From NCBI GenBank assembly GCA_036630325.1, contig CP142727.1, positions 1,054,001-1,118,000 on the forward strand: a DNA stretch of 64,000 nucleotides, written 5' to 3'. Below the pieces are notes generated by a model. The model ran no database searches, was not told where the DNA came from, and saw only the letters and a program-made list of their open reading frames with translations. Position 1 is the stretch's first letter; every line of letters starts with the position of its first letter. Positions 4,529 to 64,000 of the stretch are shown here, one piece after another. Made by a program: the position numbers and the translations under genes. Source of the stretch: Vairimorpha necatrix. Lineage: Eukaryota.

Positions 4529-5257
4529 ATGTTATTGATTTCGTTATTATTTGTTTTAAATATTAAAAAATTAAAAGCTAACAATGAAAAGGATATGATC
4601 TTTTTAATAGAGGAAAGAAAAGAAAGATATAATGAATGCGTTAAAATGCTCTCTCATGATGAAGCGCCAAGTATGCGTGTAACTTATTCTAAAGAAAAAA
4701 GAGAAAAAATAGGAAAGATTATGTATGATGTCCTAATAGATGGTATTGATTTTCCTCTAAAAATGCAACCGAGTTGGCCAAAAACATCTAAAGAATATGA
4801 AATTGACCATGAAGACGTAACATTGGGTATATTTCAACGTGCTTTAACTGGTACTTATAGTGTTCCAAGGCGTTATGGTAAAACAGAAGCACTTTATATA
4901 TTTGTGTATGAACTGGCAGATAAAACTAGACGATTATGGCAAATTTTAATATGTATGTATAATTTTGATGATCTTGATCTTGACCAAGTTAAACAAATTC
5001 TTAAGAAATATTTTGATTTAAAACTTAGTGAAGAAAACAATTTAAAAGTAAAACAGGTATGTAAAAACAACGTTTTTAAACAAATTCTTGATGATGTCTT
5101 CCATAGTATTGGAAATCAAGCAGATAGTAATACCATTGAACATGACAAACGTGAAGATTTAGGTGGTAAAATGCAAGAAAATTCGAATTCAATGATATTA
5201 GCCGAGACCCAGGCTATGGATAGTTCTAATATGAATTTTAGTAAAAAGAATAAATAG
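4529..5257 (+). CDS. Hypothetical secreted protein, family A (242 aa)
   Basis: CCC motif before ATG and hydrophobic N-terminus. Shares FP.K.QP.WP...YEI and GK...Y....LA..T..L...C motifs with the genes at 51721-55505 and 58792-59532. Confidence 0.8.
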   Translation: MLLISLLFVLNIKKLKANNEKDMIFLIEERKERYNECVKMLSHDEAPSMRVTYSKEKREKIGKIMYDVLIDGIDFPLKMQPSWPKTSKEYEIDHEDVTLGIFQRALTGTYSVPRRYGKTEALYIFVYELADKTRRLWQILICMYNFDDLDLDQVKQILKKYFDLKLSEENNLKVKQVCKNNVFKQILDDVFHSIGNQADSNTIEHDKREDLGGKMQENSNSMILAETQAMDSSNMNFSKKNK

Positions 5258-36255: not shown

Positions 36256-37101
36256 TTATTTAATATGTTCGTATATCTGAATTATTTCTTCATGAATTTT
36301 TCTAGCTTCGTAAGAACTTGATATTAATGAAAATAAAATCATTTTTAGTGCTTTAATATATGCACTAACTGCCCTTTTCATCGTTTTATTTTCGTATCTA
36401 TATAACCCAAATCTATTTCTAAGTATTTCAAAGGTGTCAATCATTGGTATATAGTCAAATGCAGAATATATATTTATATCAAATCTATGTAGTTTTATAC
36501 TTTGCTCACATAAATATTTGAATCCTGTTATATCATTTTTCATATCATAAATGGTCAAAAAAAGTTCGATAAGTTTCATAAAATCAATGAGAATATTATG
36601 TATATCGATTGGAGTATTGTATTTCTTCATTAATTTTTTTATTTCCATCAATTGTTTTTTAGTCTTTATACACAAATTATCAAAATTTAATGTCTTTAGT
36701 TTTTCATAAATATTTTTATCTTCTCCAAATTCTATATCTTTTCTAATCTTTTCGCGGTTTACTTGTTCCTGGGTCGATTTACTTTCCATCCTCATTTTAA
36801 ATTGATTAATTTTATTTTCGCAATTAATTAAAAGACTTTTCATAATATATAAATGATTATAAAAAAATTGTATATTGGTTTCTACTGTTATAATTTCTTG
36901 TGTATCATCTGATTCCATACCTGTCAATAAATTTTTATTTTCATTCATATTTTTCTGAAGTTCATCATATGGTCTAAATTTATCATCTTGGCAATTAATT
37001 ATGGATATGTAGCTATCCGCATCATTCTCACCTAAAATATCTTTTTTGTATTCACTTAAAGTCAATTGACCACAATAAATAAAAGCTATAATATACATCA
37101 T
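36256..37101 (-). CDS. Hypothetical secreted protein, family B copy 1 (281 aa)
   Basis: Short hydrophobic N-terminus; FRPYDELQKN, NTPI and IYSAFDYIPMIDTFE shared with the 40880 and 44357 genes. Confidence 0.85.
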   Translation of the reverse strand: MMYIIAFIYCGQLTLSEYKKDILGENDADSYISIINCQDDKFRPYDELQKNMNENKNLLTGMESDDTQEIITVETNIQFFYNHLYIMKSLLINCENKINQFKMRMESKSTQEQVNREKIRKDIEFGEDKNIYEKLKTLNFDNLCIKTKKQLMEIKKLMKKYNTPIDIHNILIDFMKLIELFLTIYDMKNDITGFKYLCEQSIKLHRFDINIYSAFDYIPMIDTFEILRNRFGLYRYENKTMKRAVSAYIKALKMILFSLISSSYEARKIHEEIIQIYEHIK

Positions 37102-40879: not shown

Positions 40880-41725
40880 TTACTTTTTGTATATCTGGAT
40901 TATTTTATTATAGACTTTTCTTCCTTCAGTTATTTTAAATATAATATTATATAAAATTTCTTGGAGTTCCTTTACTTTTAGCTCTGTCTTCTTTTTTATA
41001 ATTTCATTTTCGTATCTATATAATCCTAATCCAGTTTTCATTTTTTCAAAGGTGTCAATCATTGGTATATAATCAAATGCAGAATATATTTTTATATTAA
41101 ATCTATGTATCTCTACACTTTGAGTACATAAATATTCGCATCCCGTTAAATCTTTTTTCATTTCATAAATTTTTAAAAAATGTTTGATAAGCTTCATAAC
41201 CCCAATTAGTATATTATCGATTTCGATTGGCGTATTGTAGTCCTTCAGTGATTTTTTTATTATCTTTAATTGAAATTTAGCATTTAGGCATAAATCATCA
41301 AATTTTAAATCTTCTAGTTTTTTATAATAATTTTTAATGCGTGCTTCCTTTTCTATTCGTTTTTCAATTCTTATTTGTGATCTTTTTTTTAATACAATTT
41401 CTTTTCCCATTAATATTTTAAATTCATTAATTTTATTTTGACATTTAGTTAGATAGAATTTGATTATAATGATTGGGTCATATAAAATTTGTCTACTACT
41501 TTCTAAGGTATTTTTTTCTAATGAAAAATCTGATTTCATATATTTACAATCAACCTGATTTTTTTCTAAATTTTTTTGAAGCTCATCATATGGTCGAAAG
41601 TATTCTGCATCATTTTGAGGTATTATAGATACATAATCATATGGTTTGTTCTCTAGTATGTATTCTTCTATGTAATCGCTTCTATTACATCGAGCAAAAT
41701 TTATAAAATTATAAAGCAGAATCAT
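40880..41725 (-). CDS. Hypothetical secreted protein, family B copy 2 (281 aa)
   Basis: Same motifs as 36256-37101; CCC before ATG. Confidence 0.85.
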   Translation of the reverse strand: MILLYNFINFARCNRSDYIEEYILENKPYDYVSIIPQNDAEYFRPYDELQKNLEKNQVDCKYMKSDFSLEKNTLESSRQILYDPIIIIKFYLTKCQNKINEFKILMGKEIVLKKRSQIRIEKRIEKEARIKNYYKKLEDLKFDDLCLNAKFQLKIIKKSLKDYNTPIEIDNILIGVMKLIKHFLKIYEMKKDLTGCEYLCTQSVEIHRFNIKIYSAFDYIPMIDTFEKMKTGLGLYRYENEIIKKKTELKVKELQEILYNIIFKITEGRKVYNKIIQIYKK

Positions 41726-44356: not shown

Positions 44357-45199
44357 TTAGTTGTATATCCGATTTAATTTTTCATAAATCTTTACCGCCT
44401 TATTTGTACTTGATAATAAGTTAAATATAATCTTTTTTATTGCTCTCATAATTTTATCTATTTTCATTGGTTTATAAATATTTTCGTATTTATATAAATC
44501 CATTTGTTCTTTCAAATTCTCCAAAGTTTCTATCAAAGGTATGTAATTGAATAATGAATATATTTCTATATTATACAAATTAATTTTTTTTCTTTGTGAA
44601 TATGAATATTTGCGACCCATTGTGTTTATTTCCATATCATAAATAGTAAGAAAAAGTTGAGTGATCTTTATGAACTCAATTATGATAATATTAATTTCGA
44701 TTGGAGTATTTAATTTCTTTATTAGTTTTGTTATCTCATTCAGTTGATAGTTAGTTTTGATACATAGATAATCGATTTTTAATTCTTCAAGTTCATGATA
44801 AATAATTTTTGCGGGCTCCATAACTTCTAATTTTTTTGTAATTAACATACGTGTTATCATTTTTGCGACTGATTTGCTTTTCATCCTTTTGATATATTTC
44901 TTTATTATATTTTTACATTTAATAATATGAAATTCCATTTTGAAAATTGATTTCTGCAATATGTGCCTGTTCCATTTGCAGGTCGAAAATTCTTCCGATA
45001 AGTCTGTTTTCATAAAGGTAGAAGAAGTTTTTTCTGTTCTTATGTTTTTTTGCAATTCATCATACGGCCTAAATACAAAAATTTCTTGAGAGGGTATTAT
45101 GGATATGTAATAATTTGTTTCATTCTCATTAATGTAATCTTTGATGTATTCACTTAAAGTTAACTCAGTACAATGAATATAATTCAAAATAAATATCAT
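44357..45199 (-). CDS. Hypothetical secreted protein, family B copy 3
   Basis: FRPYDELQKN, NTPIEI, IYSLFNYIPLIETLE. Start set at the ATG after CCC. Confidence 0.85.
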   Translation of the reverse strand: MIFILNYIHCTELTLSEYIKDYINENETNYYISIIPSQEIFVFRPYDELQKNIRTEKTSSTFMKTDLSEEFSTCKWNRHILQKSIFKMEFHIIKCKNIIKKYIKRMKSKSVAKMITRMLITKKLEVMEPAKIIYHELEELKIDYLCIKTNYQLNEITKLIKKLNTPIEINIIIIEFIKITQLFLTIYDMEINTMGRKYSYSQRKKINLYNIEIYSLFNYIPLIETLENLKEQMDLYKYENIYKPMKIDKIMRAIKKIIFNLLSSTNKAVKIYEKLNRIYN

Positions 45200-45785
45200 T
45201 TTATGGGTGAAAAGACACATGCCTATTTATATGAATTTTAAAAGTGGTTTTGTTATTAAATTATATGGAGGGTATTCATAGTGTAAAAAAGATTATTCAT
45301 GTATGGTCAATTACTTGACATGAAAAAAACATCAATGCAATGTATAAATGGTATACAACATAAGACTAATAAACTATTACATCTAAGACAAGATGCTTAT
45401 AAATGTTATTCAAGCTTTGTTTGCAAGTCAAGGGAAAAATATAGAGAAACTAAAATTAATCTGGGACTTATATTATTTTTTTGAGAATTAAAACACATGA
45501 GAGTACCCAATATATAGGTAAGCGTATTTAATCGCGTGGGAATTATTTTCTTAAATTTTCGATTTTAGCCAAAATGTTTGTACGAATTTTCTGGGAGTAT
45601 TTGAATGGAAAAACAGGTAAAAGATTATAGAGTAAACCGATGGATACAAAATAAATGAATTAAAATTTACTCTTTTTATGAATAAACAAAGAATATAACT
45701 TAGACAATCATCAAAATTATCAACTACAGAAATTACCATCAACTGTATGTTTTAGAGCCATATTGCTTTCGTATTATATATTTTA

Positions 45786-48700
45786 TGTATTTTTTTTTAA
45801 AAGAAGGTAGAAATTATACAAATATATAACATCCCTCTCTAAGACGGTTAGTCTCCCTTTATCCTCAACCCAAGCAGACCTTTCAGATCATAGTGTCTTT
45901 TCTTTATGTTTCTTTCATTTACGAGCTTTACAATGTATGAACCTTTACCACATCTCTCTATAATTTGACTATTTTCCAAAAACCCGCCTTTTGAATATTT
46001 CGTACCTTTAAAGTCTCCTTCTTGGCTACTTCAATGTACTCACCTACTTTAAAAACTTCTCGCTTTCCCTTATTTGCCATTTATACATATTTTCCTTGCG
46101 AGTTGTTTTCAATCATTACGTTCTCTTTTTCATTTTCTGTTACTTCTTTTGGTGTACATTTTATTGCGGCATGATAACTCATATTATATTTTTCAATACT
46201 ACTCATAACTTTTTCTTAATGGTACCTTCTTTCGTCTTAAAAATGCCTTTTTGCATCGTTATTTTGAAATTTTGCAAGCAACATTACTTTTGTTTGACGA
46301 AAAACTTACTTTTTTATGTTTAATTTCTAGTCTGTTGAAAAAAGCTTATACCCCCTCATTGAAAAAATCTCGTTCGTTATCAGTTATAATCTCTTCAGGC
46401 TTTTCCCCTTGCTCATATAATCTACTAATAAATTCTATAACATTATTTCCAGCTTTTTTCCCCATTACCGTTCTTCATACTCTTCGGTAAAATAATCTAT
46501 AGCTATTAATACGTGTTTACCTATGTCTCTAAAATCAATAAGATCCAAAGCAACCTTTTTAAGATAGAGTGTGTCTACAAATTCATATCCTCTGACTTAC
46601 TCTTTTATATATTTGCACTGTTCACACCTTCGTATTGCTTCATTTATGTCTTTCTTTATTCAGGGCCAATAAAAATTTTCTCGCATCACGTAATATACAC
46701 TAGTCATGCATCTATATCCAATCCGCTCGTGGTACTCTTGCATCCACCTCTCCCTTATATCTTCTGGAAGGATCTCTGCCTTTCGCCCCGAATCGAATGT
46801 CCTGTATCTCTTTTCTCCTATCATCTCAACGTGAGGGTTCCATTTACCCTTTATCGGCTTAATGGATCTTTCATTTTATCGTCTTCTATATGTATTCTAC
46901 TTAACGCGTCGGCCACTACCAGTTTTTCTGGATTCTTATATCCTATGGGAAAATCAAATTCCTGAATCTTATCGATCCATCTATTTATTCTATTATTGTA
47001 AAATATAGCTTATTACTAATTTCTACTACTGCTTTATGGTCTGTCTCAATGTCAAAGTTCCTGCCACGCAATTCTTATTTAAATCGTTAAATTTCCCAAA
47101 ATGTCGCGTACATTTACCTTTTCTGATATATTTTATCTAGTCTCCGTAGTGTTATGTTTTTTGAGCTTCATTGTATTGCTACCATTCTCCTTTCTCGTTC
47201 TTCTGAAGCAACACTGCTTCAATCCCTACTTTGCTCGCGTCCGTTCTGTTAATAGATACTTTACAATAATGTGGTAATCTAAATTTCCTCATCGTTCTCA
47301 ATACTTATTTTAGCTCTAAAAACTCCATTTCATTTCAATTGTCCATTTGCATTTTCTATCTTTACCTCTCAAGCTATCTGTCAGATGAATAGTTATTCCT
47401 GCATAATTCTTATTAAAATTCCCAAACCACCATGTTATTCCTAATTCTTTGCGTTTCACTTACACTTGTCGCTATGGGAATTCCAGTGCTTCGTTCCTCT
47501 TTATCTTTTTTGCTTCAAAATCTGTACCATTCAATGTAACGCTTAGAGCTTAACTAACTGAAACTAAATTGTATCTTCTCAATATTTAACCTCATTTATG
47601 TCTCTTTAACCTATCCAATACCTCTATTACCAACATGTCATGTCTTCTTTGGTTTTAGCGTATATGACTTTGTCGTTCATATATACTCCAACGCCATCTC
47701 CTTCCAAATCATCAAGGAATTTGAACATTTTTCGTTGTATTCTGCCGGGAATTTATATATCCTATCACCATGCTGTTCCATTCATATAACTTTCTTAAAA
47801 TTCAAAGGCCGTTTTGTGTTTGTCTGCTTCTTCAATTCCACGTGATAAAATCCCATTTTAAATCTATTACTATGAATCATTTGATTCGTGTGGCTTTATC
47901 AATGTCCCCGACATTTGACAACTCATACGGATCTTTCTCAACCACGCCATTTAAACACATTAGATTACATATAATCTCGCTTCTCCGTTAGGTTTACCTA
48001 TAGCCCCAATTGTGTTCCTCCAGTCAGGTGCCGACCTTCTTGTAATCTTTTTATCTTATAAACTTTTGATATATTTTCAGTATCCTTCATCAATTCCAAT
48101 GAAATTCTCTGCACTCCTTTTACTGCTCTTTTTCCTTAAGGGGCTTAATTTTCCATTTTTATATCTTGTAATATCTAATCTCTTCCTGTTGCGAAGAAAA
48201 CTTCCTTAAATTTTGCTTTTATGCCTTTAATGCTAAGACCCTTTCTTTTCTATCTTTCCTCTTTTCTTTTCGTTCTACTTCTTGCTTGCGCTTTACCACT
48301 TTTTCTATATTCTTGCGTACTGAGCTCTGTGCTTGTAGATCCACCCTCTTTTTGAACGCTTGTACGAATTAAAACGGTTATTTTTATTATTTTCCTCTTT
48401 CATCTTCCTTACGGAGCAATCTTATGCCATGTGCCCGAATCTACCGCAGTAAAAGCGACATTCACTCCTCTGCTTACATACTCTTTACTTACCCTTAAGC
48501 TTGCTTTTTTATTCGCTAATTCCTCTTTGAATGTTCCTCTAACCGACTCAGCAATCATTTCAATTATTCTACATTCATCTTCTTTTTCTATAACTTTTTC
48601 TTCCTTTTAAGATTCTTTTTCCATTTCTTCAACAATTAAAGTCCGATTGTCTTCTTTCCTAATCCTTTCAACCATAAAATTTTTTATTTCTTCTGAACCC

Positions 48701-48889
48701 ATTTCAAAAATTTTTGCTTTTAATATAGGCATGTCAACACCATCTAGCTCTAATTTATACACCAGCCCTTAACTTCTTGTAACATTTTTTCTGACCTCTT
48801 GACCACAGCCCTCACATGTCGACTCTCGATTTGGAATCGCCCCCACTATTTATCATAATGAGGAGGCGAAATTATACAAATATATAACT
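45786..48889 (-). mobile_element. Decayed ~3.1-kb Ty3/gypsy retrotransposon with ~45-bp LTR remnants
   Basis: Shared LTR core GAAATTATACAAATATATAAC at 45810-45830 and 48868-48888. PBS TGGGGGCGATTCC starts at 48845 on -. PPT AGAGAGGGA lies next to 45831. Broken CCHC, RT (EWNSMV, VYM.D), RNase H (ETDHK, RWIDKIQEFDF) and integrase remnants. Confidence 0.88.
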
Positions 48890-50171: not shown

Positions 50172-52123
50172 ATTGGGATACGTCTGGTTCTATTATTTAT
50201 AATTCAAATATTAATTAAAGTTCTGCATCAACACTACACATTCTTTATGAATTAATGATATGATTAAAATGCATTTGACTATCTAGGTTACAAAAAAAAC
50301 ATGAAACTACACTCGTTGATCTGTAGTTCTTAACTCTTTATTTAATATGTATAACGAAAAACATTTTTTACTTTCTATTTTTACAAAAAAAAATTTAATT
50401 CACTTTCAAGACTATAATATTTCTCTTTACGAATTCTGGGTAAAATAGGTTTACTATATTTAGAAGATAAATGAGAAAAAGGTTTAATTTATTTTTTCCA
50501 TATAATTAGAATATAATACAATTAAAGCAATATTCTAAATATAAAGACAATCACATGGAGAAATTCAATATATGAATATTAGTTAGTTCCACTTTTTTAT
50601 TTTAATTTATCAAAAAATAAATTTATACGACGTTTTATTGACTCATTGATTTTATTAATGTGGACGGCGGATAGTCCAGATATCATGATTGGTAATTCTA
50701 ATCGGTAAAACGTCTCAGTCTGAAACAACGTTTCAGAAATAAATATAAATACCTTTTTGGAATAACAATCATGGGTAAAAATAAATACAATTCAACTAAA
50801 TCTCATATTTCGTCTAACGTCAACATATTAAATTAACAAATAAATCATTTAAATGACATTTAGAAACAAACAGAGTTGCACGAAAAAACAGAAAAAATAA
50901 TTTAAAGTATACACCAATAACAACCCCTTTCTTCATTGGTAGATTATAAAACCAATTACATTTGAATTTAAAAGTAACACGACAAAAAAATTTATTATAT
51001 GGAATAAATGTTATACTACCAATATTCTCGTAGTAATACTTGCCTCGATTGGAATTGCACACTATAGTAGCTAGAGTATTCAATTCCTATTACAATCACC
51101 CCCTAGAAAAAGCAACCCTTGTTGTTTTTTAAACATGATAATCTCAAACGGTTTTGCAACTTCTTCCTTTTGCCGTAAGTTGCAATGAGAATTATTATAC
51201 TAATTTTCAATTTTGCCACATCTCGCACTATATGAGTCATATAATCAGTACTGCTGACTAAATTTAAAATATGATTCGTTTTCTAATATAACAATATCTA
51301 TTTCATTCTTTTAATCAAGTATGGTATTATTCTCTTAACAAAGATGTACTGCGATTTTAATTCTTTCTCAATATATGATTCTCAAAAGGAATTAAAAAAT
51401 GACTTTTTAGCTAACGGAATGGCACTGAAGTAAATGTAGATGTTGAACTTAAATTGCACATAAAAGAATCTATATGACAAAATTTCTAACTGAGATAGCT
51501 TTCGAGGTAGAAAATACACTAAGATATACTAGAACAATCAAATGATTGTTTTCCGTATATGTAACTACTTTCGCTAAATCATAAAAAAACATCATAGCTT
51601 AAGCGTATAACTAAAAAATGAAAATGTCTAATTTGATCAATAAACAAAATTAAAATACATAAAGATTAAATAAAAATATAATAGCCAAAATAAATATAAT
51701 ATGTTATATGAAAAATGACATCACTCTAAAAATAAGCCTAATCTTTTATATGAATTATCTTCTACCACTTTAATGTTAATAATGTGTTGTCTGGTTTTGG
51801 GTTCTTCATAAATATATTTCAGGCTCCTTAAAATCATTTTATAATCATCATTATCAAATACTTGTGTGACTTTACATGTTTCCTGATCGTCGATTTTGAT
51901 AGTCATTATATAAGATAACACAGTTTTTAATTTATGTTGGTTTAGTTCTTTTACATTAAAATTAAAACATAAAAGAGAATTATAAATTTTTTTGGTTTGA
52001 TTCGCTAAAGATTTCAATAATTCATAAATTACTTTTTCTTTTCCGTGATATGTAATCTTGAGACCAGTCATATTTAGTGAGTGCCAATATATCTCGAATC
52101 TCAAATCTTTTTTAGTTATTTCA

Positions 52124-52161
52124 TGTTAACCATTTATTTATTAAGGGTTCTAAACCCTACA
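52124..52161 (-). repeat. 3' LTR (38 bp)
   Basis: Minus strand TGTAGGGTTTAGAACCCTTAATAAATAAATGGTTAACA; contains the ORF stop codon. Confidence 0.95.
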
Positions 52162-55100
52162 TCCCCCCTCCAGACGGGTAGTCTCTCCATCTTCTAAACA
52201 ACTCTTCCTTATCTCTTTCAAATCATAATGCCTCTTTTTAACAATTTTACCATCCAGTAGTCTCACAATATATGAATCATTTTCACTTATAGCTACGATC
52301 CTTCCGCGACCCGTGAATCTTCCCTTGTCTGTTTTCGCACGTGTACCTAAATTTTCTCTTCTAGCGATTCTTACCTCTTGGCCTACTGTAAATGTCTCTC
52401 TGTGTCTTCTCTTGAACCGACCAGCATATTTTCCATTTTCATCATTTTCAATTATAACTTCAGCAGTTTGATCTCTCCACGCTTCCATCGGCGTACATTT
52501 TATTGCTGTATGTAGTGTATTATTATATCCTTTGATTGCTCTTTCTATCTTTTCAGAAATATTCCCATCATTTTGCTTTATCAATGTCTCTCTTATAGTT
52601 CTGATGCATCTCTCGATTCTACCATTACTCCTATGAGCTTCTAAGCCCACTTTCCTATGTTTAATATCATTAATACTACACCATTCTTTAAATCTATTAC
52701 TTACAAACTCTTTTCCGTTATCTGTCACATATTCCTCTGGAAATCCATCTTCCCTTATCCACTTTTGTAATACCTCTATAACTTCACTACTCTCTTTACA
52801 TCTCAAATTCGAACCCCACAACCTTCTAGTAAAGTAATCAATACCCAGTAACACATACCTATTCTCTCCACCTATGTCCATTAAATCCAACGCCACTTTC
52901 TCCAATTTCTTTCTAGTTACTACGAAATCACATCCTCCTGTGTTTTTCCTATTGTTAATCCCACATATTTCACAATTCTTAATTACCTTATTAATATGAT
53001 CTTTTATACCAGGCCAATACCATCTTTGTTTAATGTTATAATAAGTGCCTTTGACACCTCTATGGTTTAACTCCTCATGTACTCTTGTTATTTCATGTTC
53101 TCTACTATCTAGGCTCAATATCTCTTTCACCTCACCTGTGGAAAATTCCCAATACTGTTTACCGTCCTTTTCTTTAATATGTTTCTGCTTTTTTCCCAAA
53201 ATTTGTTTTTCGATCACTTCTTTTCTCTTGTTGTCCTTTTCTTTTTGTTCATCCGACACTTCTACCTGATCATACTGCCTACTTAACGCATCTGCATCTG
53301 TCATCAACTCCCCTTTCACATACTCTATTGTAAAGTCAAACTCTTGTATCTGTTCTACCCATCTGTTTATTCTGTTATTATTGAAGTATGGCTTATTTCT
53401 GATCTCTGCTAATGCTTTATGATCCGTCATCAAATGAAATTTCCTTCCTCTCAAATCACTTTCAAACTTCTTTATTCCAAAAAACACCGCCAACATCTCC
53501 TTCTCACTTATCGTATATCTTCGCTCGGTAGGAGTCAACATTTTCGATGCCCATTGTATCGGAATCCACTCACCCTCTTTATTTTCTTGTAATAGAATTG
53601 CTCCGATCCCCGTATCACACGCATCAGTTCTTACTCTAAATAGCTTTTTCCCGTCCGGAATCTTCAATTTTTTCATATCTCTCAAGCCTTGCTTCATATC
53701 CTCAAAAGCTCTTTCCATATCCTCCGTCCAATTCCACTTAACATCTTTCTTTAAAGCCTCAGTAAGCCTTACTGTTCTATACGCATAGTTGGGAATAAAG
53801 TCTCTAAACCAACCAGTTAGTCCTAAAAATCTTCTTAACTCTCTAACATTCTCAGGTTTTCTATATTCCAATGTCTCCTGCTTTTTAATCTCATTCGGTC
53901 CCATGACCTCCCCATTAATTGTTACTCCCAGCAACATCACCTCATCTTTTTTGTATTGTATCTTTGTTTGGTTTATTCTCAACCCACACTCTTTAAACTT
54001 TTTAATTACCCTCTCTAGTAACTCGTCATGCACTCTTACGTCTTTACCATGAATAACTATATCATCCATATATACTTCCACGCCTTTACCTCTGAATTCA
54101 TCTAAAACTCTGTTCATTACTCTCTGCATTATATGAGGCGAATTCTTAAACCCCATAACCATACTATTCCATTCGTATACTCGACCATTCACTTCAAATG
54201 CTGTTTTGTGCTTATGGTGCTCCTCAATCTCAATATGATAAAACCCTTCTTTTAAGTCGATAACCGTAAATACTTTTGACCCCTGTGTGGCTCTCATAAT
54301 ATCCTTAATTAACGGTAGTGAGTACGGGTCCTTGTCAACCAAATCGTTTAACGCCATCAAATTGCTTACCAATCTTACGTCCCCATTTGGTTTTTCAAGT
54401 GCTCTTATTGGACTCCTCCACTCACTTTTGGAACGTCTTATAACCCCTCTATTTTCCAACTTATTCAAGTACTCCTCAAATTTCACCCTAAGGTAGTATG
54501 GCACATTCTGCCCTCTTTTCACAACCTTTTCACCTTGCTTAGTATTTATTGGACACTTCTCTCCTGTGAGATATTTTATCTTTTCTTCTGATTCTTTAAA
54601 AACTTCCGGATACTTTTCAATTAAATTTTCTAACTTATTTACTGTTTTACATCTTTTCCCTTCATTGTTGATAATTGGTTCTTTCTGTAAAACTTGTTCC
54701 TTTTTAATTTTATATTTTTCCCTACCAGCTACACTTTCATGACATTCTCTAGCGTAATGCCTTTCTTTCTTACATATAAAACATTTTGTAGTTTCTCTGA
54801 TTTCTCTTCTTTTCCTATACATCCTAAGATTTTCTTTTCTTTCTTCCCTAAACTCTTTCAACACTTTATCCATAATCTCTTTAATCATTTCTTGTCTTTC
54901 TTCTGACTCTCTCTCAAATTCTGCTCCTTTTTGTAAGCCTTTATAAATTTCCTCCCAACTGCTCCTTCCGTCACAAAAATTTTCAAAAATATAATCCTGC
55001 AAGTTCGCAGATGCCAAATCCATAACATCTTTCCACTCAACTTTCTCAACTTTCAATATTAACTTTAGTCTCTTATCTATCCTAATTGCCTCTTTCTCTA

Positions 55101-55170
55101 ATGTTCTAGCCTCTTGACTACGGGACTCTCTTGTTTCCCTGTTCATCCTTGTGTTCGCCATGTTAACCAT
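52150..55170 (-). CDS. Gag(CCHC)-RT-RNaseH-integrase polyprotein (1006 aa), no recognisable protease
   Basis: CFICKKERHYAREC; DLKEGFYH, MGFKNSP, YMDD; TDACDTG, EKEML, TDH; HEELNH...CEIC, LDLMD, TDNGKEF, NGRIER. Confidence 0.95.
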   Translation of the reverse strand: MVNMANTRMNRETRESRSQEARTLEKEAIRIDKRLKLILKVEKVEWKDVMDLASANLQDYIFENFCDGRSSWEEIYKGLQKGAEFERESEERQEMIKEIMDKVLKEFREERKENLRMYRKRREIRETTKCFICKKERHYARECHESVAGREKYKIKKEQVLQKEPIINNEGKRCKTVNKLENLIEKYPEVFKESEEKIKYLTGEKCPINTKQGEKVVKRGQNVPYYLRVKFEEYLNKLENRGVIRRSKSEWRSPIRALEKPNGDVRLVSNLMALNDLVDKDPYSLPLIKDIMRATQGSKVFTVIDLKEGFYHIEIEEHHKHKTAFEVNGRVYEWNSMVMGFKNSPHIMQRVMNRVLDEFRGKGVEVYMDDIVIHGKDVRVHDELLERVIKKFKECGLRINQTKIQYKKDEVMLLGVTINGEVMGPNEIKKQETLEYRKPENVRELRRFLGLTGWFRDFIPNYAYRTVRLTEALKKDVKWNWTEDMERAFEDMKQGLRDMKKLKIPDGKKLFRVRTDACDTGIGAILLQENKEGEWIPIQWASKMLTPTERRYTISEKEMLAVFFGIKKFESDLRGRKFHLMTDHKALAEIRNKPYFNNNRINRWVEQIQEFDFTIEYVKGELMTDADALSRQYDQVEVSDEQKEKDNKRKEVIEKQILGKKQKHIKEKDGKQYWEFSTGEVKEILSLDSREHEITRVHEELNHRGVKGTYYNIKQRWYWPGIKDHINKVIKNCEICGINNRKNTGGCDFVVTRKKLEKVALDLMDIGGENRYVLLGIDYFTRRLWGSNLRCKESSEVIEVLQKWIREDGFPEEYVTDNGKEFVSNRFKEWCSINDIKHRKVGLEAHRSNGRIERCIRTIRETLIKQNDGNISEKIERAIKGYNNTLHTAIKCTPMEAWRDQTAEVIIENDENGKYAGRFKRRHRETFTVGQEVRIARRENLGTRAKTDKGRFTGRGRIVAISENDSYIVRLLDGKIVKKRHYDLKEIRKSCLEDGETTRLEGGCRV

Positions 55171-55198
55171 TTATTTATTAAGGGTTCTAAACCCTACA
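55161..55198 (-). repeat. 5' LTR (38 bp)
   Basis: Identical to 52124-52161; contains CCC, AATAAA and the ORF's first ATG. Confidence 0.95.
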
Positions 55199-57689
55199 TT
55201 TCATATCTATTATTTTTATTAACACCGGGCCAGTTCGGTTGACTTTTAATAGGAAATATCATATTACTCAAAATACTATCATAAAGTAATTTTGCCATTA
55301 GTTCTGCAATAAGGAAATCATAAGTTTTATATGTTATTGTAGTACTATCTTGAAAAAGTACTCTACGACAATGTTTACGATCTTCATACAAAATATCGGC
55401 CTGATCACTTCCTTCTATTGTCCAATTAGTTAAAATTTCAGTTACGGTATTGTTTATAACTCGTTTTAGATTTAAGAAAACTAAAGCTGTATTTAGAAAC
55501 ATCATAACCCTCCATATTAATTTTTAAATGTACAAATAAATCTATTACACTAGAATGATAAATTTTTTTTTAAGATTCACAACAAATTAGCTTATGATGT
55601 TTTGTTTAAACACTTTGTTTGTTAATGTTGTATATCTGACTTACTTAATATTCTTGTTGACTCAAATAAACAAAACTTAAATATTATAATTATGTAATTC
55701 GCAATTCTTCGTATGTATAGAGAGTTAAGAAGTCCTTCATATTATGAAAAAATAGATTAAAAACATTAAAATGTCAATTGAGTTAGAAAAGTGTTGAATA
55801 TGAATATTTTAGATTAATTTTTATAAGTTCAGAAACCCCAAATGTTGAAATGATGGCTCATGCTTATTCAGACCTAATTCAATACCAACTATGTATAATT
55901 TCTAATATGTATATAAATATTATCAAGTTTTTTTAATCAGTTTGCGCAATACACTACATAAATAAATTTTTTTGTAAGAGGTATATATTGTAATAAATTT
56001 GTAATGATATGTAGAATATTAAGTCCAAATTATAAATTTCCAATATTTTTTGAATGTATGACTTTTTCGTTAACTTTTAAAATAATAATTAGAGAAATTC
56101 TAGAAAATTATATCATTCAAAAAGCTTGTCGATTTTGTGATTATATAATTTCATCAAGACTTTTAGACATAAATAGTAAGTTCAAGTCAATTTTAATCCG
56201 GAAACCTAGTCAATACCGTACATTTGTATTTTATAAAATAAAAGTTTACTTTTCTTCTATATAGCACGACTAGATGACTACAAGATTTTAGATTTTAATA
56301 AGGCAAGTACATAAAGGAAAGCAAGTCTACAAGTTAATATAGCTTACGCTAAGATTAGAATAAAACCACGATAATTTTTCATAGAAAACATAAAAGATAA
56401 AATCTATGACCAACATGCACACACATTAAAAACTCTGATCTTTACACAATTAGAGAAGATCAAGAGAAATATTCATTTCTTAAGGACATATATAAAAGTG
56501 TTAAACAATTTATAAATATTAAGAGACATGGATTTTTCTTTATTGCAAGACTTCATTCATTTCCAGCATTCTTTACGAAGTTAAAAAACCACTGCTTTTA
56601 TACCTTGTTTTCAAGTTGGCGTGGTAAATAAAAACTTCCTATTAAGAATCTGTTGTTAATGCCTGTCTTTTCACGATGAAAAAAAATAGATTATAAACAT
56701 TTTGATATAGGGAAATACGGAATCTAAAAATAAAATAAAACTTTAGTACATATAATTGATGAAATAATAAGATTTAAACAATTTAAACCATATATATATG
56801 AGTACTTAAATTTGGATCGGAGCTATTGAAAAAGATACATTTATTTTTATCTTCTTAGAATAGCCGAACATAAATAGGCTTAAACATTTGGGTTTGCCGA
56901 TTTTATTGTTTAGAAAACAGTATTCTATGTAGAAAAAAGTGGTGACAATTTGGTTATCAAATAAAAGTTTTAAAATAAAAATTGTCTAAAACACCCTTTT
57001 ACTAGTTCATATTGTTAATACATTTACCTTTACAAAGCAAAAAGTTTGACACAAACTTCTAAATTTTTTTTTCAATGTAAATATCTAGTGCGCAACATAA
57101 TAAATTAACAGACAATAAATAAGACGACAATATTTTTAAATTTTTAAATCTAAGGATATACCTTGTAATACATATTCGACTAAAATTTATAGATTACTAT
57201 AACAATTTGTCTTCTTTGTAAATTATTCTATGATAGGAACATTATTTATATCTCAATTCATTTTCTTGGAGACACCAAAACATTATCTTAATTCTATTGA
57301 AATTTACTTATATTTAAACAAATAATTTAAATAAAAATGAAGACCGTCATAATTTCTATTTTCTTACTTTTTTATAAAGTCTGTTTATTTCGGTAATGTA
57401 CCGGTAAAAAAAAATTATTAACACGTTGTTGCAGTGGGTCGTTTTTGAAATTTCTGGTTCGAGTCAGCGTCACTCGCTTTCAAAATTGTTCAGAAATAAT
57501 GAAATAACACAAATTTATTTTTCGAAATAAATATAGACATCAAACACAACTAACATAAATAAATACTTTAAATTAATATTTAATTTTTTTTGCTTAATAA
57601 AGTCTTAAAATCCAACAATTATTTTATTCAGATTATAAAAATGACAATATAGATACATAATAGTACATAAAGTATATGATAATTAAGAC

Positions 57690-58791: not shown

Positions 58792-59532
58792 CTAATTTAA
58801 ACAATACACATTGTTTTGTCTGCTTAATTGAGAATTTTGAACATCTAAGATATCAATTTGTAAATTATCAAAGGACATATTAGAAACACAATTATGTATT
58901 ATGGCGATATTATTGTCGGTAACATATCTGATTTCTTTCTTTATGTTTTGAAAATTTCTTCTTGAAAAAACTCTTGTTACTTTATAACTAATAAAACTCT
59001 CCAATTTAATATCAATTTTATTCGACAAAACTAGTTTTATATGAAAAAGATTGAGTTTTTGTTTTCTAAAATTAAGACACACTATATCATTATATAATGC
59101 ACGAGTTTCGTCAGCAAGCGATAATAATATTTCGTAAATTACTGCTTTTTTTCCTATATTAAAAAAAAAGAAAAGAGGATCTTTCAATGACCTATATAAA
59201 TTTCAAACTTCAGGTCTCGTTTTAAGATTTCATATTTCTTTTTATTTCGTTCTTTAGGCCAGTCAGATTTCATTTTTATTGGAAAGTTCAAATTTTCTAA
59301 AAGTAAATCAAAAAAAAACTTTAGCTATTGCTTCTGCTTGCGAATTATTATAATTATCAAATATTTGATTATGGTTTGTAAAAAATAATTGTTCATGGCA
59401 ATTATCATTCTCTATTTTTATTTTAGTAATTTTTTCATTTTTAACTTCCGCGTCATAATTTTTTCCCTTGGTTGTGGGATGAGTTTTGACTTTCTGGAAA
59501 TCCAGAACTAATAAAAAATGTTTCAAAATCAT
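58792..59532 (-). pseudogene. Family A secreted-protein gene with frameshifts
   Basis: CCCC-ATG start and signal-like N-terminus. Across frameshifts it reads NFPIK..SDWPKERNKKKYEILKRDLKFEIY then GKKAVIYEILLSLADETRALY. Confidence 0.75.
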
Positions 59533-61566: not shown

Positions 61567-64000
61567 TGTTATATATCCTTATTATTTTTACCCCTTATGA
61601 TGGAAAATAAACACATGGGGGCGATACCAGAAAATGGGTCTACAAAGGAGGACCGTGGCCAAGAGGCTAGAATATTATTAAAAGAGGTTAAAAGGATTGT
61701 TTATGAGTTGTTTTTAGAGAAAATTGATGAGTGTGGATTTAAATTAGAAATTTTTAGGAGAGGTTCTATTTTATTGAGAAATTTTATTGTTGAGAGGATC
61801 TCGCAAGAGGGTAGTTGGAAGGAAATTGAGGAAAAATTAGAGTTGCTAGCTATTCAGGAGGAAAAGGAACAAGTGAGAAAAAAAGAATTTGAAGAGTTGT
61901 CCCTAGCGTTATGGGCTAAATTTGAGGAGAAGAATAAGTTGTCTCGTAAGGAAAATAAAAAGAATATGCGTTGCTACAGTTGTGGGAAGTTAGGCCATAT
62001 GTTAGATTTTGTAGGGGAATGAGGCGAGATTCCGAAGACAGAAGAAATAAAAGTAGTTTTAATTATGTTGGTAAATGTAAAGTGCAATTAGACTTAGAGG
62101 GTAAATGTGATGACGATTCCAATTCGGACAAATGTGATTATTATAATGTTGATGGTGGGAAACGTAAGAAGAAAAATTTAGGGGATATACAAGATTATAG
62201 CAAAAGGGACAATAATAAGAGAGTTCTGTTGAGAAGGGATGTAAGAGGCATCGCGTATTTAGAGGAGATTATTTCACGGGTAGGAGGAAGAGAGGATGAA
62301 GATATTAGTTTTTGTAAGGTTGAAAAATGTATTATCAAGACTCAAGAAGGCAAAAAAGTTGTTAAAAAGGGGCAGGCTATAGCCCAGGCTTTGTTGAAGA
62401 AGACGGAAGATTATATTAATAGTTTGGAAAGAAGAAAGATAATTAGAAGGTCGACATCTGACTGGAGAAATTCCATTAGAGCGATTGAGAAACCGAATGG
62501 TGATATAAGATTAGTAAGTAATTTAATTGCTCTTAATGACATTGTAGAGAATGACCCTTATGAGTTAACTAGGAAAAGAGATGTTATTAGAAGTACACAG
62601 GGATCTGAATTTTTTACCGTGATAGATCTAAGGAGGGGTTTTATAGTATTGAGATTGAAGAGAAGGATAGGTTTAAGGCGGCTTTTGAGTTTAAAAAAAA
62701 TGTATCCGAGTGGAATTCGATGGTCATGGGGTTTAAAAACTCACCGCAGATATTACAAAGAATAATGAATGGGATTTTTGAAAAATTTATTGGTAAGGGA
62801 ATCGAAATTTATATGGACGATATTGTGATTCATAGTAAGACAAGAGAGGGTCACGACAAATTGTTGAAAGAGGCTGTGGATATATTAGAGGAGAATAGTA
62901 TGAAAATTAATTTAGCTAAGGTTCAATTATGTAAACGAGAGGTGATGTTGTTAGGAGTAACAGTTAATGGCAAGGAGATACTGCCATCTGAAATAAAGCA
63001 AAATGAAGCGTTAGAATTTCCCAAACCGGAGTGTGTATCAGATGTTAGGAAGTTTCTTGGGCTGGCTGGATGGTTTAGAAATCATATTGATAATTATGCA
63101 AAACGTACATTGGCGTTGACGGATTCTTTTAAAGGACGAGGAAGTAATTGGAAATGGACAGAAGAAATGGAAAAAGAATATATTAGTTTAAGGGAAGTGA
63201 TTAGGGATTTAAAAGGTTTAGCAATTGTTAATTATAATAAGGAATTTTTGTTACGCACGGATGCGAGTAATGTTGGATTGGTTGCTGTTTTAATGCAGGA
63301 AGATGATCAAGGTAATTGGGTACCAGTACAGTGGGCATCAGAAAAGTTTACGCCTACGGAAACGAGATATGGAATCAGTGAGAAGGAGATGTATGCAGTC
63401 TTTTGGGGAATTAAAAAGTTTGAATATGAACTACGCGGAAGAAGATTTAGGGTAGAAACTGATCATAAGGCATTGATCGAGATTAGAAATAAACCAGTAT
63501 TTAACAATAATAGAATTAACAGGTGGATTGAAAAGATTCAAGAGTTCGACTTTAGCATTGAATATAGAGAGCCTAGTACCATGGTTGTAGCAGATGCACT
63601 GAGTAGGGTACATGAAAATGAGAAAACGCTAATGAATAAGGAGAGAAGTATTAAACAGGCACAGGGTAAATGGGACAAGCATGTTAAAGTTGTTGATGGG
63701 AAGGAAATTTGGGTATTTGACTCTGGTAGAGAAGCGGAGATTCCAAAGAAAGAATTGCGTGAAGGTTTAATTGTCAATGCTCATGAAAATTTGGGACATA
63801 GAAGTTTAGGATCAGTGTACTATGCAATGAAGTTTGAATTTTATTGGCCGGGTATGAAGAAGGATATCGAGGATGTTTTAAAGAAGTGTGAAGTTTGCCA
63901 AATATATAATAGGAAAAAGAGTGGTGGTTGTGATTTTGTTAGTTCAAGATTTTATTTGGAAAAGGTTGCTTTGGATTTGATTGAGGTTAGAGATTTAGGG
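61567..64000 (+). mobile_element. Third minimal Ty3/gypsy copy (frameshifted, truncated by the window end)
   Basis: Putative 49-bp 5' LTR TGTTATATA...AATAAACACA (61567-61615) with CCCC-ATG inside, then PBS TGGGGGCGATACC. CYSCGKLGH, YMDD, TDAS, TDHK, HENLGH...CEVC. Frameshifts near 62000 and 62630-62700. The 3' LTR is outside the window. Confidence 0.9.

Follow-up and report, generated by a model that had tools for sequence, protein, structure and literature searches.

The 64,000-nt stretch of Vairimorpha necatrix DNA analysed here (contig CP142727.1, positions 1,054,001 to 1,118,000; hereafter the window) contains a complete and autonomous-looking copy of a Ty3/gypsy (Metaviridae) retrotransposon, set in a Nosema/Vairimorpha-type microsporidian genome. 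The element lies on the minus strand at 52124..55198 of the window, is 3075 bp long and 98% coding, and is bounded by long terminal repeats (LTRs) of 38 bp. It is very probably a real and recently mobile element that lacks a protease and belongs to a compact clade with micro-LTRs. The clade is characterized by a length of ~3.0-3.4 kb, LTRs of 38-58 bp, and one open reading frame (ORF) of ~1000 aa that runs from the 5′ LTR through the primer binding site (PBS) and the polypurine tract (PPT) into the 3′ LTR and encodes no protease.

The termini are defined by a 41-nt exact direct repeat (52122-52162 and 55159-55199), the sole one reported for the window by a direct-repeat search. Trimming to TG..CA ends leaves two identical 38-nt copies on the minus strand, the 3′ LTR at 52124..52161 and the 5′ LTR at 55161..55198. 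When up to three mismatches are allowed, the 38-mer matches the window exactly twice, and none of 100 shuffles gave any match. Directly outside both repeats stands TTTCA (left copy 52119..52123, right copy 55199..55203), the short target-site duplication (TSD) typical of a DDE integrase. On the inner side, the 3′ LTR adjoins a 10-nt purine run, GGAGGGGGGA on the element strand (52162..52171, minus strand), which is translated within the ORF and is kept in two relatives described below, L081 and a degraded window copy. The 5′ LTR adjoins a PBS-like 14-mer starting with TGG (55147..55160, minus strand) that is translated as M-A-N-T-R; the M-A start recurs across the family. PBS types themselves recur across families and fall into classes starting TGGCGAACAC, TGGGGGCGAT, and TGGCGACGGCGAC. 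Direct repeats ending in TG..CA, a 5-bp TSD on both sides, and a PPT directly upstream of the 3′ LTR are all features of Ty3/gypsy elements, and the 38-bp length of the repeats is far under the usual range. The first-pass annotation, which was made from the sequence alone, had described the identical repeats, the perfect TSD, the adjoining PBS and PPT, and a 3021-nt ORF filling ~98% of the 3075 bp. All of these were confirmed, the PBS and PPT as stretches of sequence.

The single ORF (52150..55170, minus strand) encodes a polyprotein of 1006 aa and about 118 kDa and spans 3021 nt with its stop codon. Its first ATG is located within the 5′ LTR, and its last three codons and stop are located within the 3′ LTR. 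A helical N terminus is followed by a CCHC zinc knuckle (residues 130-143, 54742..54783), which was found by a motif scan, matches Pfam zf-CCHC weakly, and aligns to the knuckle of Ty3. The reverse transcriptase (RT; residues 259-418, 53917..54396) carries YMDD at residue 367 and matches both Pfam RVT_1 (E 3.9e-31) and the Ty3 RT profile. RNase H takes up residues 481-611 (53338..53730; Pfam RT_RNaseH and RT_RNaseH_2), and the integrase is composed of an H2C2 zinc domain (690-741) and a DDE core (766-839; together 52654..53103; Pfam Integrase_H2C2 and rve). All of these domains are read from the minus strand.

An alignment of the window ORF with 22 homologs (A1) was used as the family profile. 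The HHCC and DDE residues of the integrase (H698, H703, C733, C736, D762, D817, and E853) are invariant in it. Among solved structures, the A1 profile found the Ty3 Gag-Pol polyprotein as its best match (7q5b, E 1.6e-119), followed by Ty3 RT (4ol8 also matched). The Pol order RT-RNase H-integrase and an RT nearest to Ty3/gypsy agree with this assignment. A chromodomain, the mark of chromoviruses, had no family match in the Pfam scan of the ORF; PF00385 occurs in distant fungal Tf2-like matches and not in the 55 closest homologs. The element also differs from the TRIM and SMART classes of miniature LTR retrotransposons, which are defined by a non-coding interior, in that its interior is the 1006-aa RT-RNase H-integrase ORF.

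What the Ty3/gypsy plan would further include, an aspartic protease between Gag and RT, is missing. Five lines of evidence drawn from sequence and structure prediction converge on a polyprotein without a protease, a point that is added here to the first-pass annotation, which had not mentioned it. Pfam gave no protease match in residues 1-260 even at E values up to 10, and a motif scan found no D[ST]G motif in the ORF outside of RNase H. The spacing between the knuckle and the aligned RT is ~90 residues in the alignment, compared to ~320 in Ty3. The AlphaFold2 (AF2) model, with a mean predicted local distance difference test score (pLDDT) of 78, places helices at residues 14-122, then the knuckle, a disordered linker (152-177), and the RT, with no protease fold. 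By the same Pfam scan, finally, an aspartic protease was detected in 0/4 clade members versus 5/5 sister elements outside of the clade. A protease family is likewise present in none of the 55 closest database homologs according to precomputed Pfam lists.

The element has moved recently. Contigs from four public runs (X1-X4, of which X1 and X2 belong to different studies) were placed on 51600-55700. One contig each in X1 and X2 joins 52117 to 55198 and leaves out 3080 bp, corresponding to the element together with one copy of the TSD; seven letters at the joint fit either side, and a single TTTCA is left. The flanks of this empty site carry 5-8 differences to the window sequence per 280-385 nt, and as these are the same in X1 and X2, they represent another haplotype or strain. 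Other flanks start exactly at 55198/55199 (at least four in X1, and also in X2), and one contig in X1 has another flank that ends exactly at 52123/52124. Contigs from the interior are 99.6-99.9% identical to the window copy (6 differences in 1665 nt and 1 in 1411 nt). The empty site and the differing flanks at the same ends demonstrate a multi-copy family with the 38-mers as its exact termini, and an insertion that is polymorphic. The depth in X1 (~60-65 in the interior versus ~3.5 in the flank) hints at many copies, although depth is not copy number and yields no count. The recent activity proposed in the first-pass annotation is thereby upheld, as are the element boundaries on which it was based.

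These contigs also bear on whether the structure could be an artefact of assembly, or a host gene of retroelement origin that happens to be flanked by a repeat. The filled junction of this haplotype is present only in the window assembly, as it would be in an artefact. On the other side stand the shuffles, none of which gave the repeat, the perfect 5-bp TSD, an empty site that matches the TSD exactly in two runs, and independent contigs that stop at the same termini. Such an origin is therefore extremely improbable.

Some further observations were made on the same contigs. Loose ends in X1, X2, and X3 at 55199-55205 share seven flank letters with the window and then continue into a different sequence that is common to them. 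They could stem from a preference for certain target sites, from another insertion at a similar site, or from structural variation at this locus. In X3, a bat gut metagenome, 10 of 12 contigs are at least 99% identical to the element interior (window 52263-55150), and the same is true for all six contigs in X4, a freshwater metagenome. Samples of these kinds thus contain DNA of the element's host or of a very close relative of it.

The micro-LTRs are not confined to this copy, as four further clade members could be read. The nearest relative with readable DNA is L081, a 3024-bp contig that was mis-binned in a bacterial metagenome-assembled genome (MAG) and shares 67% aa identity over residues 118-1003. 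Its conserved purine tract is followed by a homologous 38-nt TGT..ACA terminus and then by an unrelated A/T-rich flank, while its 5′ end lies off the contig. Two members are located in the window itself. One (61567..64000, plus strand; 54% aa identity) is broken, as its homology is spread over three frames, and runs off the window; a putative 49-nt 5′ LTR (61567-61615) is followed by a PBS-like stretch starting TGGGGGCGAT, and the copy is 96% identical to P0013. The other (45785..48889, minus strand) is degraded, with many frameshifts, and was delineated by homology and repeat comparison. The starts of its two LTRs are separated by 3058 bp, 22-24 nt of the repeats can still be matched, a purine tract stands before the 3′ copy, and its 5′ LTR of ~44 nt leads into a PBS of the same type as in the broken copy. 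The fourth, L085, is from the same MAG as L081 and is a basal clade member in which two 100%-identical 58-nt LTRs surround a 1095-aa ORF.

A quick maximum-likelihood tree, midpoint-rooted, was built from 28 hand-chosen rows (two window copies, seven loci, 12 of the 55 close and 7 of the 65 distant hits). All micro-LTR members fall into one clade of 16 of the 28 rows, which receives a Shimodaira-Hasegawa-like approximate likelihood ratio test (SH-aLRT) value of 100. L093, L089, L091, L087, and L099 are placed outside of this clade, among animal and fungal elements. The 55 closest homologs are 38-73% identical to the window ORF, and identities in the clade go down to about 36%. Full-length closest homologs measure 985-1052 aa, and many of them reside on contigs that barely exceed the ORF (for example 1018 aa on 3142 bp and 1001 aa on 3035 bp). 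Where close homologs carry a species name, it is Nosema granulosis, Vairimorpha necatrix, or V. apis. The protease-free homologs, the compact contigs, the tree, and the short LTRs together identify compaction, micro-LTRs, and the missing protease as traits of the clade. The clade is monophyletic, and the short LTR is a shared trait of it and not a deletion in one copy. The extreme compaction that the first-pass annotation had noted in a single copy thus extends to the whole clade.

A deletion derivative can be set against the same data; this particular copy would then descend from an ordinary Ty3/gypsy element with LTRs hundreds of bp long and would have lost its protease and the greater part of each LTR. 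Typical Ty3/gypsy elements are indeed larger, and sister elements from the same bins as L081 and L085 have a protease and LTRs of 75 and 176 bp. But two independent deletions that yield identical TG..CA 38-mers, each adjoining a PBS or PPT, are implausible, and the same termini recur at several loci and in three runs. L081, at 67% identity, has the same 38-nt end, all readable clade members stay within 38-58 nt (the others at ~44, 49, and 58 nt), and no relative with long LTRs turned up inside of the clade. Together with the lack of a protease family in all 55 closest homologs, this makes a deletion in one copy highly improbable.

The five sister elements (L093, L089, L091, L087, and L099) show which features reach beyond the clade. 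They resemble the present element in having a single ORF and, in L093, L089, and L091, short LTRs (75 bp, 176 bp, and at most 137 bp, respectively). They differ by their position outside of the clade, by longer ORFs of 1107-1309 aa, and by the aspartic protease domain that is found in all five. The L091 contig (4143 bp, 1289-aa ORF) begins and ends with the same 139 nt and looks like a circular assembly of one LTR and the interior; its LTR must be short because only 137 nt lie outside of the ORF. The two bins that hold L081-L109 (G001 and G002) are labelled as bacterial MAGs (Clostridium and Turicibacter) and gave 50 and 17 matches to the retroelement profile. Since they contain several complete compact LTR elements, these bins are contaminated with eukaryotic repeat contigs. 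A metagenome scan with A1 kept 80 loci, all of them distant gypsy elements (24-34% identity) that were set aside, and a scan of viral contigs gave 18 pattern matches and no relatives.

Among known systems, Ty3 of Saccharomyces cerevisiae shares the CCHC knuckle, the RT-RNase H-integrase order, and the TG..CA ends with the present element. Ty3 is ~5.4 kb long, has LTRs of ~340 bp, is read in two frames, and generates a 5-bp duplication. The ~320 residues between its knuckle and the aligned RT include the protease, in contrast to the ~90 residues found here. The shortest LTRs found in print belong to grass elements described in PMC3281118, namely FRetro129 (SMART; non-coding, 292 bp, 85-bp LTRs) and FRetro64 (a 5.2-kb copia element with 76/90-bp LTRs). 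Both share the TG..CA ends and the 5-bp TSD with the present element. FRetro129 encodes nothing and FRetro64 is a much larger copia element, whereas the element described here accommodates RT, RNase H, and integrase within 3075 bp and has LTRs less than half as long.

Closer in host range are the three microsporidia-specific Ty3/gypsy groups of Parisot et al. 2014 (PMC4202319), which, in the portion of the article that was accessible, are likewise single-polyprotein elements of microsporidia with LTRs at both ends. The present clade also combines a single polyprotein and a microsporidian host with a Ty3/gypsy branch of its own, separate from animal and fungal elements; it was compared with these groups by description only. 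That portion gives no LTR lengths, and the clade may overlap with a family already described. A literature search on micro-LTRs, on PBS and PPT, and on the use of LTR finders in microsporidian elements found nothing relevant beyond work on plants and other systems, and no existing description in print; older sources (Xu et al. 2006 and supplements) were outside of its scope. Neither "LTR" nor "retrotransposon" appears in the main text of the paper on the V. necatrix genome. The micro-LTR, protease-less clade is thus probably new, with described microsporidian families compared by description.

How 38 bp could serve as an LTR is suggested by their content. Numbered 1-38 on the element strand, the LTR holds GGG at 5-7, CCC at 15-17, two overlapping AATAAA at 20-29, and ATG at 29-31, together with an A/T-rich stretch; positions 10-12 form the stop codon of the ORF, which is used in the 3′ copy. 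A second in-frame ATG arises at the LTR/PBS junction, where the A that ends the LTR meets the initial TG of the PBS. L085 (at 286-288), L093, and L089 use this junction ATG as their start codon and translate the PBS (M-A-T-A.. or M-V-E..), both inside and outside of the clade. The junction ATG also explains the family-wide "M-A" start (after 0-7 extra residues). The CCC/GGG motif with its A/T-rich layout upstream of the ATG is kept in L081, L085, L093, and the second window copy (61567..64000).

The same layout is found in host genes. According to PMC2803860, the ATG of microsporidian genes directly follows an A/T-rich stretch and a CCC- or GGG-like motif, and AAUAAA is located near the stop; 5′ untranslated regions in E. 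cuniculi are shorter than 7 nt. In V. necatrix, 77% of functionally annotated genes and 54% of predicted transposons have the motif at most 30 bp from the start (PMC10759460). In the window, 7/12 host ORFs have it, compared to 17% of random 30-mers. By its match to this layout, a 38-bp LTR could hold a complete local promoter, a start codon, and a 3′-end signal.

A mechanism can be proposed on this basis. The 38-bp LTR would constitute a complete minimal microsporidian transcription unit, laid out like host promoters, with transcription starting a few bases before the ATG. [quoted passage not shown] With a start between the CCC and the ATGs, U3 would measure ~20-27 nt and R ~10-18 nt, and hardly any U5 would be left. 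Reverse transcription would then be primed by a tRNA at the TGG... site and follow the ordinary retroviral scheme, with the first strand transfer proceeding via the very short R and plus-strand priming at the purine tract, and the DDE integrase would integrate the product with a 5-bp duplication. The polyprotein may work uncut, or host enzymes may cut it at disordered linkers (residues 152-177 and 626-638). The chances that promoter, R, and poly(A) functions are distributed over the LTR in this way appear evenly balanced.

The repeats may instead act only as integrase attachment sites and as the repeat for strand transfer, while flanking host promoters drive read-through transcription. A length of 38 bp is very short for a promoter, the copy is inserted inside of a host ORF in the same orientation, and transcriptional overrun is documented in microsporidia (PMC2803860). 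The LTR nevertheless has the host-type CCC/GGG and A/T-rich layout before its ATG, and this is conserved in the relatives named above. The RNA would moreover still need a repeat at both ends, and the LTR supplies one under either promoter. Transcription by read-through and not from the LTR is thus rather unlikely.

It could also be that the element is non-autonomous and needs a protease and Gag in trans from other Ty3/gypsy families, or that it moves at low efficiency as an unprocessed ribonucleoprotein. The missing protease, which is apparent from Pfam, motif, spacing, model, and sister scan, speaks for this, as does the N-terminal region. Among 1.84 billion representatives, just 35 are related to its 230 aa; almost all of these are short pieces, and none connects the region to a known Gag. 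Residues 14-122 are helical in the AF2 model, but a single-sequence fold of the N-terminal 180 aa reached a pLDDT of only 52, and Foldseek with the full model returned RT matches only and was uninformative on the N terminus. Protease-bearing compact elements co-occur with clade members in the bins. Conversely, RT, RNase H, and integrase are intact, and no protease-bearing element was seen in the window, where only clade members were found. The clade is also diverse and old (identities down to about 36%) and has intact ORFs of constant architecture, which argues for long-term self-sufficiency. Dependence on other families is unlikely on balance, if somewhat less so than read-through transcription. 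Tentatively, and with the odds slightly against it, the clade may be the smallest LTR lineage that still encodes RT, RNase H, and integrase, and may have the shortest LTRs so far (38 bp). These would combine a bare core promoter, a poly(A) signal, and a start codon with an R of ~10-18 nt, and an unprocessed Gag-like-RT-RNase H-integrase protein would retrotranspose without a protease.

Several points weigh against a protease-less, mobile micro-LTR element as described here. In X1 and X2 the locus was seen only as its empty allele, and the filled junction comes from the window assembly. No matching TSD was seen on the L085 contig, possibly because its flanks derive from different copies in a metagenome assembly. 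The 64-kb window contains no tRNA genes, so none could be matched to the putative PBS, and a GGGTT..AACCC hairpin in the LTR is not better than in shuffles (z -0.34). The transcription start, the poly(A) site, and the division into U3, R, and U5 are what we infer from the layout of the LTR. Nearly all polyproteins of the Nbr elements of Nosema bombycis include a protease, in the order Gag-protease-RT-RNase H-integrase (Gill et al. 2008, PMC2474625); the present clade is without one and is set apart from them by description only. Neither Pfam nor the 35 relatives link the N-terminal region to a known Gag or capsid family.

The insertion has disrupted a host gene. When the element is removed in silico, a 240-codon frame spans the insertion site, and both of its halves are collinear with an intact 242-aa paralog in the window (4529..5257, plus strand). 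The C-terminal half of the split ORF is located at 51721..52118 and the N-terminal half at 55204..55505, both on the minus strand and thus in the orientation of the element. The collinearity with an intact paralog indicates that the insertion split a member of a small gene family. No database homologs of the ~240-aa family were found in a search among longer proteins, and its status as a gene is based on the paralog in the window. A partial match (58915-59154, minus strand; 39% over 80 aa) may be a third member.

The genome is A+T-rich, and the genes around the element have housekeeping roles of a eukaryotic kind (RtcB, SMC, a subtilase, a NOL1/NOP2-type methyltransferase, and a Myb protein). 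The public protein collection includes two of the neighboring proteins but lacks the element ORF. Three paralogous ORFs of 281-287 aa, mutually 38-47% identical and all on the minus strand (36256-37101, 40880-41725, and 44357-45220), form a loose tandem array, for which no convincing Pfam family was found.

In the textbook view, LTR retrotransposons need LTRs of a hundred to thousands of bp, which house the promoter, R, and U5, and a protease that matures Gag-Pol. Both assumptions are put to the test by a mobile clade whose LTRs measure 38-58 bp and which has no protease. The clade offers a natural system for asking what minimum length of R still permits strand transfer and whether an LTR element can do without processing. 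If the clade is indeed the smallest LTR lineage and moves by means of an unprocessed protein, it would set new lower limits for LTR function and imply that polyprotein processing is not essential. LTR finders with a minimum LTR length of ~100 bp would skip such elements or label them LTR-less, which would bias repeat annotation and insertion dating in microsporidia. With a polymorphic insertion that interrupts a gene, the family is an active contributor to variation in these parasites of insects.

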